From a bacterium (lineage in GTDB: Bacteria > Patescibacteriota > Patescibacteriia > UBA1558 > UBA10009), in contig JABHGM010000001.1 in NCBI GenBank assembly GCA_018672055.1, positions 507,494 through 571,493 of the forward strand: DNA of 64,000 nucleotides, written 5' to 3'. Shown here piece by piece: positions 1,576 to 13,207 of this stretch. The number at the start of each line of letters is the position of its first letter. Positions within the stretch are counted from its first letter, which is position 1. The translations under genes were made by a program, and so were the position numbers. The notes beneath the pieces were generated by a model. That model was given only the letters and a program-made list of their open reading frames with translations, was not told where the DNA came from and made no database searches.

Positions 1576-2787
1576 ATGATAAAGTATTTTAAATATTTAT
1601 TTCTACTTATAGTACTGTGTGCTAGTTTTTTTGTATTTGCAGATAATATTAAAGCTGAAGAAAATGTTGATCTTTACCTATTCTATAGCTATACTTGTCC
1701 ACATTGTCATGATGAAAGAGTATATTTAGAAACTCTTAAAGAAGAATATGGCTCTCAATTGGAAATTCATGAATTTGAAATAATAAAAGATAAAGCAAAT
1801 CAAGAATTATTTAAAGAAGCTGCTAGAATATATAATGCAAATATTAGTTATGTGCCTTTAACTATAATAGGTGATCAGTTAATAACTGGTTATGGTACAG
1901 ATGAAACTACTGGTTCAGAAATAAAAAATTTAATTGATTTATGTTTAACAACAGAGTGTAGTGATTCATTTGGTTCATATCTTGAATCTGTAGAGTTAAA
2001 TAAACCTGCTTTAGAGCCTACTAGCAATAGTATAGTTATCCCTGAAACTTTAAATTTACCCGTTTTTGGCGAGATTAAGACTAAATCAGTATCTTTACCA
2101 CTACTTACTTTTGTAATCGCTGCTGTGGACGGCTTTAACCCATGTGCTATGTGGGTTCTTTTATTTCTAATATCCCTACTTTTAGGTATTGAGAATAAAA
2201 AAAGAATGTGGTTACTTGGCGGTACTTTTATATTTGCGTCTGGTTTTGTTTATTTCTTATTCTTAGCTGCTTGGCTTAACTTAATATTATTTATTGGTTT
2301 AATATTTATTTTAAGGTTAATAATAGGTTTAGTGGCCATGGTAGCTGGAGGATATAATTTAAGAGAGTATTGGATTAATAGGCCTGGTTGTAAGGTAACT
2401 GAAAGTAAGTCTAGGAGAAAGATGTTTGATAAGTTAAAAGAGATTACTCAGAAACGTTCTTTATTCTTAGCTTTAACTGGTATTATCTTAATTGCTTTTG
2501 CTGTTAATTTAGTTGAACTTATTTGTAGCGCAGGACTTCCTGCAATTTATACTTCAGTTTTAGCATTATCTGATCTTGCTACTTGGCAGTATTACTTATA
2601 TTTACTTTTCTATATTTTCATCTTTATGCTTGATGATATGTTAGTCTTTGGTATTGCTATGGTTACTTTAAAGAGTGTTGGTTTAGATGGTAAATATAGT
2701 CGTTATTCACACTTAATTGGTGGTATTATTATCTTTGTTTTAGGCCTTCTCCTTATATTTAGACCTGAGTGGTTAAGTTTTAGTTAA
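1576..2787 (+). CDS. DsbA-like thioredoxin-fold domain (CPHC) fused to polytopic membrane domain with conserved TM cysteines
   Basis: Signal/TM, then YSYTCPHCHDE (DsbA-type CPHC active site). C-terminal 6+ TM region with Cys in NPCAMW and LICSAGLPA helices (CcdA/DsbD-like relay suspected). Confidence 0.5.
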   Translation: MIKYFKYLFLLIVLCASFFVFADNIKAEENVDLYLFYSYTCPHCHDERVYLETLKEEYGSQLEIHEFEIIKDKANQELFKEAARIYNANISYVPLTIIGDQLITGYGTDETTGSEIKNLIDLCLTTECSDSFGSYLESVELNKPALEPTSNSIVIPETLNLPVFGEIKTKSVSLPLLTFVIAAVDGFNPCAMWVLLFLISLLLGIENKKRMWLLGGTFIFASGFVYFLFLAAWLNLILFIGLIFILRLIIGLVAMVAGGYNLREYWINRPGCKVTESKSRRKMFDKLKEITQKRSLFLALTGIILIAFAVNLVELICSAGLPAIYTSVLALSDLATWQYYLYLLFYIFIFMLDDMLVFGIAMVTLKSVGLDGKYSRYSHLIGGIIIFVLGLLLIFRPEWLSFS

Positions 2788-8354: not shown

Positions 8355-10010
8355 ATGAAGGTATTAAAAAGTAAGTTATTCTGGATTATTATTATAGTCT
8401 CAATAATTATAATAGGCATTGTAATAGGCGGTAGTAATAAAAATGAAGATCTAGAGTATAAGACTGCTCAAATTGAAAGAGGCATGCTTATTCAAAGTGT
8501 TTCGGCTACAGGTAAGGTAGAATCATCCTCTGAAACTGATCTAAATTTTAAAATAGCTGGTAAACTAGGTTCAATATTTGTATCTCCAGGTGAACAAGTT
8601 AGCCAAGGTCAGATTTTAGCCAGACTTACTTCACTACAACAACAAAGTGCAGTTACTTCAGCTCAAGCTAAACTTGCTCAAGCTCAAGCTGATTTAGATA
8701 GTGTAATACAAGGCTCTTCTAATGAAGAAGTAGCTATTGTTCAAGCTAAACTTGCTCAAGCTCAAGCTAATTTAAATAGTTATGAAGCTGCTCTTTTAAA
8801 TGCATATGAAATAAAGAATGAAAATATTTTGTCATATAAGGAGCAAGCTTTAGATGAAGCGCAAGAAGCTAGATTTTTAGCTGCTGACTCTTTAGAAGAT
8901 ATTATTGAAATATTAGATGGTGATAAAGAAGTTTATTTAAGGACATATATTACTAGCTATTTTAATGCAGATACTGATTATAATACGGCTCTTGTTTCAT
9001 ATAATTCATTCCTTTTACAAAATTTAAGTTTTGATACTACAAATTCTGTTGAGGATTTAGTAGATTATTTAGATCAAATTTATAATATTCAAAGTAAAGT
9101 AAATACAGCTCTTAATGCTAGCTTTTCTTTACTTAGTAATTTAGATCCTGTGGGAACTATAACTCAGACCGAAATTGATGCTTGGAAAGTTACAATTATA
9201 GCTGATCAATCAAGTGTTTCATCTTCTATTACTGCTTTACAAACAGCTAAGTCAAATCTTTTAATTAAGAGTATTGAATATAATAATAGTATAGAAGAAG
9301 CTCAGTTAAGTATTGAACAATCAGAAACTGCTTTAGCTGTAGCTCAAGCTGAATTAGATAGTACTTTAGCTGAACCTCGTGGTTTTGAGATTGATTTACA
9401 AAACGCTAAAGTTAAAATGGCTCAAGCAGATTTACAAGCAGCTTATGCTGATTTATCTGAATATACTTTAACTTCTCCCTTGGACGGCGTTGTTACTAAA
9501 GTAGAATATCAATTAGGTGAATATATTAGTGCTCAGGAATCAGTTGTATCTATAATTTCTGAAAATAATTTAGAAATTGAAGTTGATGTTCCTGAATCTG
9601 ATATCACTAAAATTAAAGTAGAAGATATTTCAACGATTACTCTTGATGCTTTTAACGAGGATGAAGTATTTACTTCACATATTACTTTTATTGATCCAGC
9701 TGAAACTATAATAAACGATGTTGTATATTATAAGATTAAATTAACCTTTGATGAAAAAGATCCACGTATTAAATCTGGTATGACCGCTAATGTTGATATT
9801 ACTACTGCTTCTAAAGATGATGTTCTATATATACCGCTTAGAGCAGTTATTGAAAAGAATAATATTAAATATATAAGATATATTGAAAATGGAGAAATTA
9901 AAGAGCAAGAAGTAACTACAGGTTTAAGAGGTGATGGTGGTTTAGTAGAAGTATTAACTGGTGTTTCTGAGGGACAAGAAATAATAACATATATTAAAAA
10001 TGGTGAATAA
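8355..10010 (+). CDS. HlyD/MacA-family periplasmic adaptor (membrane fusion protein), unusually long coiled coil
   Basis: N-terminal TM anchor, long Ala/Gln-rich coiled coil, C-terminal beta-barrel (YTLTSPLDGVVTKV ... GMTANVDI); the next gene is a MacB-type ATPase. Confidence 0.8.
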   Translation: MKVLKSKLFWIIIIVSIIIIGIVIGGSNKNEDLEYKTAQIERGMLIQSVSATGKVESSSETDLNFKIAGKLGSIFVSPGEQVSQGQILARLTSLQQQSAVTSAQAKLAQAQADLDSVIQGSSNEEVAIVQAKLAQAQANLNSYEAALLNAYEIKNENILSYKEQALDEAQEARFLAADSLEDIIEILDGDKEVYLRTYITSYFNADTDYNTALVSYNSFLLQNLSFDTTNSVEDLVDYLDQIYNIQSKVNTALNASFSLLSNLDPVGTITQTEIDAWKVTIIADQSSVSSSITALQTAKSNLLIKSIEYNNSIEEAQLSIEQSETALAVAQAELDSTLAEPRGFEIDLQNAKVKMAQADLQAAYADLSEYTLTSPLDGVVTKVEYQLGEYISAQESVVSIISENNLEIEVDVPESDITKIKVEDISTITLDAFNEDEVFTSHITFIDPAETIINDVVYYKIKLTFDEKDPRIKSGMTANVDITTASKDDVLYIPLRAVIEKNNIKYIRYIENGEIKEQEVTTGLRGDGGLVEVLTGVSEGQEIITYIKNGE

Positions 10011-10722
10011 GGAGTTAATACAAATTAACGATTTAAAGCGTGAATTTGCCAATGAAGAGGTAATTACTAAGGTATTGTTTGGAATTAGCTTAGACATCAA
10101 AAAAGGCGAATTTTTAGCTATTATGGGCCCCTCTGGGTCAGGTAAGTCTACTTTAATGCATATTCTTGGCTTTTTAGACAGATTAAGCTCAGGAGACTAT
10201 TTATATAAAGGAGAAGATACTAAAGAGTTTGATGATGATAAATTAGCTGAAATACGTAATAAAGAAGTAGGCTTTGTTTTTCAATCATTTTTCTTATTAA
10301 ATAAAACAACTGTTTTAGAAAATGTTAAATTACCCCTAGTATATAGTGGAGTTAAAGTTGATAGTAAGAAAGCAGAGCGTGCTTTAAAAGCTGTAGGTTT
10401 AGGACATAGAATGTTACATTTTTCTAATCAATTATCTGGTGGCGAAAAACAACGTGTAGCTATTGCTAGAGCTTTAGTTAATGATCCTGAGATAATTTAT
10501 GCTGATGAACCAACTGGTAATCTAGACTCTGCTTCTGGTAATCAGGTTATGAGGATATTGAGTGATTTAAATAAAAAGGGTAAGACAATTATTTTAGTAA
10601 CTCACGAACAAGATACAGCAGATCATGCTGAACGAATAATTAAACTTCGTGATGGTAAATTAATAAGTGATGAAAAAGTTTCAAAGCAAAGAGTAGCAAG
10701 TGATGGTTATTTAAATAAGTAA
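10000..10722 (+). CDS. ABC transporter ATP-binding protein (MacB/LolD type)
   Basis: Walker A GPSGSGKST, signature LSGGEKQRV, Walker B IIYADEPTGNLD, H-loop VTHE. Confidence 0.9.
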   Translation: MVNKELIQINDLKREFANEEVITKVLFGISLDIKKGEFLAIMGPSGSGKSTLMHILGFLDRLSSGDYLYKGEDTKEFDDDKLAEIRNKEVGFVFQSFFLLNKTTVLENVKLPLVYSGVKVDSKKAERALKAVGLGHRMLHFSNQLSGGEKQRVAIARALVNDPEIIYADEPTGNLDSASGNQVMRILSDLNKKGKTIILVTHEQDTADHAERIIKLRDGKLISDEKVSKQRVASDGYLNK

Positions 10723-10725
10723 GTT

Positions 10726-11961
10726 ATGAATTTTAGAAGTATTATAACTTTATCTCTAGTCGGTTTAAAAACCAATAAGTCTAGATCTGCCCTAACTATG
10801 TTAGGGATTATTATTGGTATAGCTGCAGTTATTATTATTATGTCTGTTGGCGCTGGAGCTCAGAGTTTAATTTTAGGGCAAGTAGAAAAAGTAGGTTCAA
10901 ATTTAATTGGCATTTTACCCGGAGCTTCAGAAGAAGATGGTCCGCCTGCTTCTGCTATGGGGGTAATAATAACAACTTTAAAATATGAAGATGCTTTAGC
11001 TATTAAAAGAAATGCACCAGAGGTAATGGCTATTGCTTCATATGCTAGGGGTATTGAAACTGTTTCTTGGCAAAATCAACAATTAGATACTACCTATGTT
11101 GGTACTACAGCTAGTTATTTAATAGTTGAGTCTTCTGAAATTGAGAAAGGCCATTTTTTCTCAGTTAGTGATGAAAAAGGAATTGCTAGAGTTGCTGTGC
11201 TTGGTTCTCAGGTAGCTGTTGATTTATTTGGTGAAACAAATCCAATTGGTCAAAGGATTAAAATTAAAAGAGAAAGTTTTGAGGTAATTGGAGTTATGAA
11301 AGAAAGAGGTACTGTTGCTTTTGAAAATGTTGATGATCAGGTATTTATACCTCTTAATACTTCTCAAAAACTTTTACTTGGTATTCATCATGTAAATATG
11401 ATGAGAGCTAAAGTTTTAAATAGTGATGATTTAGATCCAGCTATACTAGAAATTAAACAGATTTTAAGAGATAGACATAATATTAAAAATGCAGATGAAG
11501 ATGATTTCAGTGTTAGAAATCAAGTTGAAGCACTTGATATGTTAACTACTATTACTGATGCTCTTAAGTTCTTTTTAGCATCTATGGCTGCTATTTCTTT
11601 GCTTGTTGGCGGGATAGGTATTATGAATATAATGTATGTTGTGGTAACTGAACGAACTCAAGAAATAGGTTTAAGAAAGGCAGTTGGAGCTACTTATCAG
11701 AATTTACTTAGTCAATTTTTAGTTGAAGCTATTATTATAACTTTAGTTGGAGGTATTATAGGTATTATAATAGGTTCAATAATTTCTATGTTAGTTGCTT
11801 TTGTCGCAATGTACTTAGGATATTCTTGGAGTTTTATTGTATCTCCTGGCTCAATATTTGTTAGTGTAATTGTAGCTACACTTGTTGGAGTTGTCTTTGG
11901 TTTTTTTCCAGCTAAAAGAGCTGCTAAGCTTGATCCAATAACAGCATTAAGGTATGAATAA
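10726..11961 (+). CDS. ABC transporter permease, FtsX/MacB-like with periplasmic domain
   Basis: TM1, large periplasmic MacB_PCD-like domain, then C-terminal 3 TM with GIGIMNIM..ERT.EIGLRKA.GA motif. Confidence 0.85.
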   Translation: MNFRSIITLSLVGLKTNKSRSALTMLGIIIGIAAVIIIMSVGAGAQSLILGQVEKVGSNLIGILPGASEEDGPPASAMGVIITTLKYEDALAIKRNAPEVMAIASYARGIETVSWQNQQLDTTYVGTTASYLIVESSEIEKGHFFSVSDEKGIARVAVLGSQVAVDLFGETNPIGQRIKIKRESFEVIGVMKERGTVAFENVDDQVFIPLNTSQKLLLGIHHVNMMRAKVLNSDDLDPAILEIKQILRDRHNIKNADEDDFSVRNQVEALDMLTTITDALKFFLASMAAISLLVGGIGIMNIMYVVVTERTQEIGLRKAVGATYQNLLSQFLVEAIIITLVGGIIGIIIGSIISMLVAFVAMYLGYSWSFIVSPGSIFVSVIVATLVGVVFGFFPAKRAAKLDPITALRYE

Positions 11962-13207
11962 CTTTTTAACTACACTTAAAATATCTTTAACTGCTCTTAA
12001 AGCACATAAGTTAAGGAGTTTTTTAACAATACTTGGTATTGTAATTGGTATTACTTCAGTAATACTTGTTTTTAGTGCAGGTGAAGGCTTAAAAGGATTA
12101 CTTCTTTCGCAAATGGAAGCCTGGGGTACTGATTTTGTTGAAGTGGAAATTAAAGCACCTGCTACTTCTAAAACATCATCTGAAAATGCTACTAATATAA
12201 TGATGGGGGTAAATATTACTACACTTGTTTTAGATGATGCTAAAGCTATTTTAGATCATCCTAATGTAGTAGATGCTTATTCTGGAATAATGGGACAGGC
12301 TATAATGACCAGAGAAGATGAATCAGATGTTATACAAATCTGGGGTGCTACTTCTTCATTTTTAAATATTGATTCATCAGAAATTGAATTTGGTAGATTC
12401 TATACTGAAGAAGAAGACAAATCTTTAGCTCGGGTTATAGTTTTAGGTAGTGAAGCTAAGAAAAAGTATTTCGGTAATCAAGAAGCTATTGGCAAAACTG
12501 TTAAAATTGGCAGACATAATTTTAAAGTAATTGGCGTCTTTAAAGAAAAGGGTACTGTAATGTTTATGAATCTTGATGAATGGATATATATGCCAATTAG
12601 GCCACTTCAAAAATTAATAATGGGTATTGATAATATTATGTTTGTTATAGGTAAACTTGAAGATACAGATATTTCTGAAGAGACGGCTCATGAATTAACA
12701 TTACTTATGAGAGATAGGCATGATATATCAGATCCTGATAAAGATGATTTTGCAGTAACTACTATGACTGAAATGATGGGTATCTGGGATACTATACTTG
12801 GTGGTGTTACTTTACTTCTTATGGCTATTGTAGCTGTTTCCCTTATTGTAGGTGGAGTAGGTATTATGAACATTATGTTTGTATCGGTATCTGAGAGAAC
12901 TAACGAGATAGGGCTTAGAAAAGCAGTTGGCGCAAGTCCTGGAAAAATACTCACTCAATTTCTATGGGAGGCCATTGTATTAACATTTAGTGGGGGAGTA
13001 ATAGGTATTATATTTGGTTTACTGATATCATTTTTAACTTCAGTTGGTGCTAAATCTCAAGGTTTTGATTGGCCGTTTGTAGTAAAACCTTTTTCTATTA
13101 TAATAGCTGTAAGTGTATCTGTTATTATTGGAATCATATTTGGGTTAATACCTGCACGTAAAGCAGCTAAGATGGATCCTATTGAAGCGCTAAGACATCA
13201 ACATTAA
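11954..13207 (+). CDS. ABC transporter permease, FtsX/MacB-like (tandem paralog)
   Basis: Same architecture as the previous gene, GVGIMNIM..ERTNEIGLRKAVGA; 8-bp overlap suggests translational coupling. Confidence 0.85.
   Translation: MNNFLTTLKISLTALKAHKLRSFLTILGIVIGITSVILVFSAGEGLKGLLLSQMEAWGTDFVEVEIKAPATSKTSSENATNIMMGVNITTLVLDDAKAILDHPNVVDAYSGIMGQAIMTREDESDVIQIWGATSSFLNIDSSEIEFGRFYTEEEDKSLARVIVLGSEAKKKYFGNQEAIGKTVKIGRHNFKVIGVFKEKGTVMFMNLDEWIYMPIRPLQKLIMGIDNIMFVIGKLEDTDISEETAHELTLLMRDRHDISDPDKDDFAVTTMTEMMGIWDTILGGVTLLLMAIVAVSLIVGGVGIMNIMFVSVSERTNEIGLRKAVGASPGKILTQFLWEAIVLTFSGGVIGIIFGLLISFLTSVGAKSQGFDWPFVVKPFSIIIAVSVSVIIGIIFGLIPARKAAKMDPIEALRHQH

Follow-up and report, generated by a model that had tools for sequence, protein, structure and literature searches.

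A candidate reductive thiol-disulfide relay across the membrane, built on a family widespread in the Candidate Phyla Radiation

The gene at positions 1576 to 2787 (forward strand) of a 64-kb stretch of contig JABHGM010000001.1 from a member of the Patescibacteriota encodes a protein of 403 amino acids (aa) that consists, in this order, of a signal peptide, an exported glutaredoxin-like thioredoxin-fold domain of about 90 aa, a linker and a domain of six transmembrane (TM) helices. Throughout, the window means this whole 64-kb stretch. The protein is identical to the database protein P0001, "hypothetical protein HOE31_01405 [bacterium]", which is encoded on contigs of up to 963 kb, and belongs to a family that is widespread in the tiny bacteria of the candidate phyla and yet undescribed; no earlier description was found in the literature searched, including a search on CPHC redox chemistry. 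With a probability of roughly 55%, the protein is a single-polypeptide transmembrane thiol-disulfide relay that works reductively, from the cytoplasm to the outside, in the manner of DsbD and CcdA. A transmembrane thiol-disulfide relay running in one direction or the other is rather likely. The parts of the gene are given below, all on the forward strand.

1576..2787, +, whole gene, ATG start and TAA stop (2785-2787), 403 aa; coordinates checked by translation
1576..1650, +, signal peptide or N-terminal anchor (aa 1-25, MIKYFKYLFLLIVLCASFFVFA, then DNI), from hydropathy; model helix 2-23
1660..1935, +, exported glutaredoxin-like thioredoxin-fold domain (aa 29-120)
1696..1707, +, active-site CPHC (C41, C44; aa 41-44), from conservation among homologues
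1852..1857, +, V93-P94, the cis-Pro loop of the thioredoxin fold, from conservation; cis conformation expected from the fold
1936..2094, +, helical linker carrying the variable pair C123/C128, followed by a conserved beta-hairpin (IPExLxLPxxGEI..SLP) that runs into TM1
2095..2184, +, TM1 (aa 174-203), broken at F187/N188; model helices 174-186 and 189-203
2128-2154, +, invariant DGFNPCAMW of TM1 (D185 to W193), with C190 at 2143-2145; 48/48 and 120/120 homologues
2197..2361, +, TM2 (aa 208-233) and TM3 (aa 240-262), from hydropathy and model
2362..2460, +, cytoplasmic TM3-TM4 loop (aa 263-295; 11 K/R) with an amphipathic helix and C272 (2389-2391), from the positive-inside count
2461..2568, +, TM4 (aa 296-331), broken after C317-S318; model helices 296-318 and 320-331
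2506-2541, +, invariant N311..E314..C317-S-x-G-x-P322 of TM4 (NLVELICSAGLP at aa 311-322), with C317 at 2524-2526
2581..2763, +, TM5 (aa 336-366), with the membrane-embedded D353-D354 (nt 2632-2637), and TM6 (aa 376-396), from hydropathy and model

A word-indexed protein search with the window protein returned more than 7,700 proteins at an expectation value (E) of 1e-3 or below. The best 120 were full-length homologues with at least 45% identity, labelled "hypothetical" or "thioredoxin family protein" and with source names such as Patescibacteria, Minisyncoccia, Gracilibacteria, Peribacteria, Shapirobacteria and others. When 50%-identity cluster representatives were searched exhaustively with HMMER for the membrane domain alone, 1,933 clusters matched at E<=1e-3, of which 463 reached E<=1e-30. 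In nearly all of the top 150 clusters the domain was C-terminal, following an N-terminal region of about 170 aa. When GTDB species were scanned with one genome each, the family gene turned up in at least 563 genomes. Among the matches listed, most were from Patescibacteria and a few records were labelled Bacillota, Tenericutes or DPANN archaea; several of the labels are implausible. Record titles also place some loci (L009, L042, L076 and the "binchicken" loci L014, L017, L021 and others) in DPANN archaea, Gammaproteobacteria, Bdellovibrionales and other groups. The proteins of these oddly labelled loci are 45-55% identical to those of the Candidate Phyla Radiation (CPR), and mis-binning, placeholder taxonomy or real transfer could lie behind the labels.

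Judged from the alignments, the conservation of the motifs goes far beyond chance. Eleven residues (D185, G186, F187, N188, P189, C190, A191, W193, N311, C317 and P322) were invariant in a diverse set of 48 representatives that share no more than 30-50% identity with the query, and E314, D353 (47/48) and D354 (46/48) were nearly so. C272 was kept in 43 of the 48 and was Ser or Thr in a divergent long subgroup. All 41 diverse members that have the N-terminal domain carried a CxxC there, in 32 of them as CPHC, and 42 of 45 had V/I-P at the cis-Pro loop, which is invariant in the family alignment (A1). The 120 nearest homologues showed CPHC in 114 cases and CxHC in the remainder, DGFNPC in all and E..CS.G.P in 119. 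The linker pair C123/C128 was poorly kept (about 16/48 diverse members) and was often Tyr/Tyr.

Both hydropathy and an AlphaFold2 model (membrane domain only, 119 sequences; predicted local distance difference test score 83.3, predicted TM-score 0.79) gave exactly six TM helices after the N-terminal domain. A reading made earlier from the sequence alone, hereafter the sequence-only reading, had allowed six or more; the six stand and the surplus does not. The positive-inside count marks residues 204-210 (KKR), 263-295 (11 K/R) and 367-375 (K, R) as cytoplasmic loops. Signal peptide, helix parity and positive-inside rule concur in placing C272 inside and both the CPHC domain and the C-terminus outside. 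The sequence-only reading had left this sidedness to a topology check, which, when run, put the CPHC domain outside and C272 in the cytoplasm. The first 25 residues may be cleaved as a signal peptide or kept as an anchor.

C190, C272 and C317 are the only cysteines in aa 150-403, and no CxxC occurs there. The NPCAMW around C190, the LICSAG around C317 and the CPHC in the N-terminal thioredoxin-like domain are all present where the sequence-only reading had reported them, and its remark that conserved cysteines lie inside helices was borne out by C190 (TM1) and C317 (TM4), which are invariant and situated at helix breaks. In the model, P189-C190 opens the second half-helix of TM1, and C317-S318 lies directly before the break in TM4, with the conserved P322 beyond. 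As modelled, this placement of the two cysteines at helix breaks beside conserved prolines is the layout of CcdA and DsbD. A match of the membrane domain to an unrelated transporter family with non-conserved cysteines was also looked for; no Pfam or NCBIfam model matched it in the window protein, in 28 members or in the 48 diverse members, and C190 and C317 are invariant. A Foldseek search of the model against the PDB gave nothing significant; CcdA had the highest TM-scores among the matches listed, and the fold resemblance to CcdA is at most moderate. The fold class and the cysteine placement are CcdA/DsbD-like, with no homology detected at the sequence level.

The exported domain is a minimal glutaredoxin-like fold (aa 29-120; DSSP of the model) that, unlike DsbA, has no helical insert. 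The sequence-only reading had put its length at about 130 aa, which proved too long: the fold spans some 90 aa, with the signal peptide before it and the helical linker after it. Thioredoxin-fold proteins were the sole matches in phmmer and profile searches of PDB sequences, and the best ones to the family profile were Grx-1 of A. fulgidus (3ic4, E 2.8e-4) and MJ0307 of M. jannaschii (1fo5, E 1.3e-3), both with CPHC in their alignments to the family. PF00462 (Glutaredoxin) was the Pfam family matching most members (23/48 diverse members, best E 5.5e-14). The window protein alone remained below threshold for TIGR00411 (15.9 against a cut-off of 92.75 bits) and for PF01323 (DsbA; 15.2 against 25.6 bits, aa 35-73 only), and PF00462 was not listed in its Pfam scan. 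The description "DsbA-like" is therefore not supported, the insert being absent, PF01323 sub-threshold and the nearest solved relatives 3ic4 and 1fo5. These archaeal proteins (TIGR00411, redox_disulf_1) are the best sequence-level relatives and share the glutaredoxin-like fold, the CPHC and the V-P loop with the N-terminal domain, but they are soluble and cytoplasmic, whereas the domain studied here lies outside the cell and is joined to a membrane domain. Because they too carry CPHC, the motif is no proof of a DsbA-type oxidase. DsbA and glutaredoxins alike have valine before the cis-proline, and a thioredoxin given the CPHC motif is shifted in potential by just +42-60 mV (PMC2665069). On sequence evidence the domain appears to be a minimal Grx/MJ0307-like module, and the redox direction is not readable from its motif. 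The candidate description "classical DsbA fused to a transporter" was rejected: the helical insert is absent and the cysteines are invariant.

The N-terminal domain also occurs in other contexts. Variants of about 525-575 aa (P0007, P0011, P0015, P0019, P0027 and P0048) carried two tandem exported glutaredoxin-like domains ahead of the membrane domain, the first with CPHC and the second with CPLC. At L006:5043-5516, a stand-alone lipoprotein of 157 aa (LTGC lipobox) is a copy of the domain (GCPHC, GVPFTVIG, CxxxxC linker), and its gene lies two genes upstream of a tandem-domain family member. Such domain shuffling is consistent with a relay.

Gene neighbourhoods were compared in 85 loci from other genomes, 80 of them with enough upstream sequence, and one neighbour was strongly recurrent. 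This mini-thioredoxin of 89-90 aa (PF00085, E 7.7e-10) is leaderless, begins MKVLKFGAVWC[SNPA]GC, with the WC[SNPA]GC at aa 10-14, and has W10, C11, C14 and P55 invariant. In 26 of the 80 loci it was the gene immediately before the family gene (position -1), on the same strand and either overlapping it or separated from it by 1-30 nt. A reciprocal test was made with 80 independent metagenome contigs fetched by the mini-thioredoxin, 75 of which extended 300 nt or more beyond it. The family gene followed directly in 72 of these 75 and within 0.8 kb in 2 more, and the mini-thioredoxin is therefore essentially a dedicated partner. At L108:2962-3939 a divergent paralogue that shares 27% identity with the query was located about 0.4 kb after the mini-thioredoxin, and in L153 the mini-thioredoxin was present with no family gene within 3 kb.

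The idea of a single-polypeptide disulfide relay, put forward in the sequence-only reading, gains support from the six TM helices with their invariant cysteine pair, the CPHC outside and the tightly linked leaderless thioredoxin. It is further supported by the thioredoxin fold with an invariant CxxC and cis-Pro loop behind a signal peptide. In the proposed mechanism, a cytoplasmic thioredoxin would supply the reducing equivalents, in about a third of the genomes the dedicated mini-thioredoxin, and in the genome of the window one encoded elsewhere or a general thioredoxin. The equivalents would be taken up by the putative redox pair of C190 (TM1) and C317 (TM4) at the helix breaks in the middle of the 3+3 six-helix bundle, and C272 in the cytoplasmic loop would probably act as a docking or resolving thiol. 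They would then pass to the exported CPHC domain, tethered to TM1, and finally to envelope proteins, at cysteines or other groups in the oxidised state. A cascade of the DsbD/CcdA type, in which the thioredoxin would hand over to C272 and/or the C190-C317 pair, is the simplest scheme in which each conserved element has a part.

The reductive direction is favoured because the linked partner is a dithiol protein of the thioredoxin type, because CPR genomes commonly hold a separate oxidative pair of an MdbA-like protein and VKOR (PMC6744442), because related genomes also keep canonical DsbD_2 genes and because the envelope proteins of the window are poor in cysteine. Cysteine made up 0.30% of the residues in secreted or anchored window proteins (n = 7), 0.29% in polytopic (n = 16) and 0.75% in cytoplasmic ones (n = 37), in a small sample, and 2.0% in the protein studied. 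The canonical DsbD_2/ArsG-type proteins of related genomes were encoded in the same loci, a few genes from the family gene, and the family would therefore be an additional route and not a replacement. The sequence-only reading had seen no separate dsbB or dsbD in the genome, for which 64 kb is too small a base, and the DsbD_2 genes of related genomes and the MdbA-like and VKOR genes common in CPR genomes give that view no support.

By analogy, CcdA, DsbD-beta and ScsB (PF02683, PF13386; TC 5.A.1) appear closest in how the family protein would work. Shared are the 3+3 six-helix core with one cysteine each in TM1 and TM4 at proline-associated breaks, the direction of TM1 from outside to inside, the extracytoplasmic thioredoxin-fold CxxC acceptor and the cytoplasmic thioredoxin partner. 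The motifs differ, however, being DGFNPCAMW and NxxExxCSxGxP in the family and two of the PCxxP type in DsbD and CcdA. The family has in addition the conserved cytoplasmic-loop C272, the membrane-embedded Asp, Glu and Asn residues and a dedicated mini-thioredoxin gene upstream, and its thioredoxin-fold domain is N-terminal and glutaredoxin-like (CPHC) instead of a C-terminal gamma domain, with no Ig-like alpha domain. With DsbA or MdbA and their partners DsbB or VKOR, including VKOR-Trx fusions, the window protein shares the CPHC and Val-cisPro and the coupling of an exported thioredoxin fold to a polytopic, cysteine-bearing membrane partner. Unlike DsbB and VKOR, the membrane domain of the family has six and not four or five helices, no CxxC and no Pfam match, and the partner linked to the family gene is a cytoplasmic thioredoxin. 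The membrane domain showed no recognisable quinone-site features. The label "VKOR/DsbB-type" was rejected for want of a membrane CxxC and of a family match. What is new is the combination, in a candidate DsbD-like relay, of an unrecognised membrane scaffold, a reversed order of domains and a thioredoxin partner of its own.

Several observations weigh against a reductive relay of this kind. The resemblance to CcdA and DsbD seen in the sequence-only reading held for the cysteine layout and may hold moderately for the fold, but it did not hold for family membership: neither PF02683 (DsbD) nor PF13386 (DsbD_2) matched at E<=1 in the 28 members or at E<=10 in the 48 diverse ones, and hhalign, run with 80 membrane domains against 39 DsbD_2 proteins, gave a probability of 1% (E 0.054) with TM1 alone aligned. 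In that non-significant alignment the TM1 cysteines were in register (SLPxLT...NPC against NIPxLT...SPC). Against the single sequence of E. coli DsbD, hhalign aligned the thioredoxin domains alone. A profile of the membrane domain only found 0 matches in PDB sequences, CcdA included, and no internal repeat was detectable by hhalign of TM1-3 against TM4-6. Pure electron relay leaves unexplained the conserved membrane-embedded D185, E314, D353 and D354 as well as the metal- and metalloid-related neighbours in other loci (ArsR, ArsEFG-like, ArsP_1, ZIP and CDF). In the loci examined, no gene for an obvious substrate, Msr or peroxiredoxin, recurred near the family gene. Two thirds of the loci had no adjoining mini-thioredoxin, and neither it nor any other thioredoxin-fold gene was found within the 64-kb window. 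Finally, CPHC with Val-cisPro is also the signature of DsbA, so that an oxidative role is possible.

The acidic and amide residues and the metal-related neighbours are what a thiophilic metal or metalloid handler would make most of. In such a protein As(III), organoarsenicals, Hg, Cu, Zn or Cd would move by ligand exchange, with no electron transfer, from the exported CxxC domain to a TM site of Cys, Asp, Glu and Asn and on to C272 and a cytoplasmic CxxC protein, following the logic of MerP-MerT-NmerA or of a cation site of the LysE superfamily. The invariant membrane-embedded D185, N188, N311, E314, D353 and D354 around the two cysteines would fit, as would the recurrent ArsR/SmtB, ArsE/ArsF/ArsG-like proteins, ArsP_1 permease (weakly like the Cu/Zn efflux protein SO_0444), ZIP, CDF, P-type ATPase and YibE/F, and the LysE superfamily, to which DsbD belongs, contains several metal transporters (PMC7778945). 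Each of these neighbours, however, was found in at most about 25% of loci (a raw frequency, given without background), and none is linked as tightly or as reciprocally as the thioredoxin. Nor does the membrane domain contain His- or Met-rich or CxxC metal motifs; a thioredoxin fold outside, one cysteine per half-bundle and a thioredoxin inside are the canonical layout of an electron relay, and very high conservation over many hundreds of species is more like housekeeping than resistance. We regard metal handling as unlikely. It is very improbable that the membrane domain holds an iron-sulfur centre or another cofactor for the transfer of single electrons, with the TM1 and TM4 cysteines of two subunits as ligands. 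RnfA/RnfE and NqrD/NqrE ligate an iron-sulfur centre as antiparallel heterodimers inside large complexes. In the family, by contrast, the exported N-terminal domain fixes the topology and makes parallel homodimers alone possible, the tightly linked partner is a dithiol thioredoxin and not a ferredoxin, no hidden Markov model of the Rnf-Nqr families matched the 28 or the 48 members, and no Rnf or Nqr partner genes lie nearby.

The same relay could also be run oxidatively, the exported CPHC domain oxidising envelope thiols and being re-oxidised through C317, C190 and C272 by an oxidised cytoplasmic thioredoxin-like protein. In bacteria that do not respire it would then do the work of DsbB or VKOR-Trx without quinones, as a functional analogue; CPR bacteria largely lack quinones and respiration. 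The CPHC with valine before the cis-proline is a DsbA signature (PMC2665069), the fusion does resemble VKOR-Trx in its logic, a point of the sequence-only reading that holds, and substrate genes of a reductive pathway do not recur nearby. Judged from the established potentials of the thioredoxin family, however, electrons passing from a CPHC domain to a WCxGC thioredoxin would as a rule have to move thermodynamically uphill. The MdbA-like protein and VKOR already common in CPR genomes, the cysteine-poor envelope proteins of the window, the missing DsbA-style insert and the cytoplasmic archaeal Grx/Trx-type nature of the nearest solved CPHC relatives further argue against it, and we consider this direction quite unlikely. 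Distinctly improbable is the stronger form in which the family arose independently of DsbD/CcdA and, run in reverse with the mini-thioredoxin, exports oxidising equivalents, so that extracytoplasmic disulfides would be made independently of DsbB and VKOR in quinone-less, non-respiring CPR bacteria and in some Bacillota and Tenericutes.

If the reductive relay is real, a large part of the CPR moves redox equivalents across the membrane by a family for which the databases have no model. These hosts do not respire, their genomes are minimal, and they live as epibionts that depend on surface proteins and pili. The family would add a new architecture, possibly of new origin, to DsbB, VKOR and DsbD/CcdA among the intramembrane thiol-disulfide enzymes, and thousands of proteins now called "hypothetical" or "thioredoxin family" would be better annotated. 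The mini-thioredoxin and the membrane protein form a two-gene module, and the mechanism is directly testable.

Other genes recurred more loosely. DUF134, a putative helix-turn-helix regulator, and DUF5320 were found upstream of the pair of thioredoxin and family gene, DUF134 directly upstream of the mini-thioredoxin in 19 of 61 metagenome loci and within five genes in 29. A frequent order was DUF5320, DUF134 (sigma-70 region 4-like helix-turn-helix), mini-thioredoxin and family gene (for example L023:3523-3810, L134:2702-2983 and L128:2376-2621), and DUF134 may be the regulator of the operon. The remaining loose neighbours were MinD/Mrp-type iron-sulfur ATPases and the ArsR/SmtB, ArsE/ArsF/ArsG-like, ArsP_1, ZIP, CDF and YibE/F genes named above. 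An ars-like cluster beside the family gene (L006:1149-5923, L007:7194-9600 and L008:576-4263) comprised ArsR/SmtB, a thioredoxin-like protein of the MTH895/ArsE family (TIGR00412), a CxxC lipoprotein of the ArsF family (NF040494), a transporter of the ArsG family/DsbD_2 (NF040495), one or more ArsP_1 permeases and a 4Fe-4S ferredoxin; parts of it occurred in about 7-15 of the 61 metagenome loci.

In the window itself, where the DNA has 26-32% G+C and the open reading frames are long under code 11, the gene is preceded by an exported FKBP isomerase and followed by unrelated genes. The FKBP-type peptidyl-prolyl isomerase (984-1499) has a membrane anchor at its N-terminus and is encoded 76 nt ahead of the gene, which suggests a local pairing of envelope folding factors; the adjacency was not kept in the loci of other genomes. 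Further downstream, positions 8355-13207 encode a periplasmic-adaptor-like protein, an ABC ATPase and two permeases of the MacB/FtsX type, all four free of cysteine, which are likely to form an ABC system of the efflux or lipoprotein-release type.

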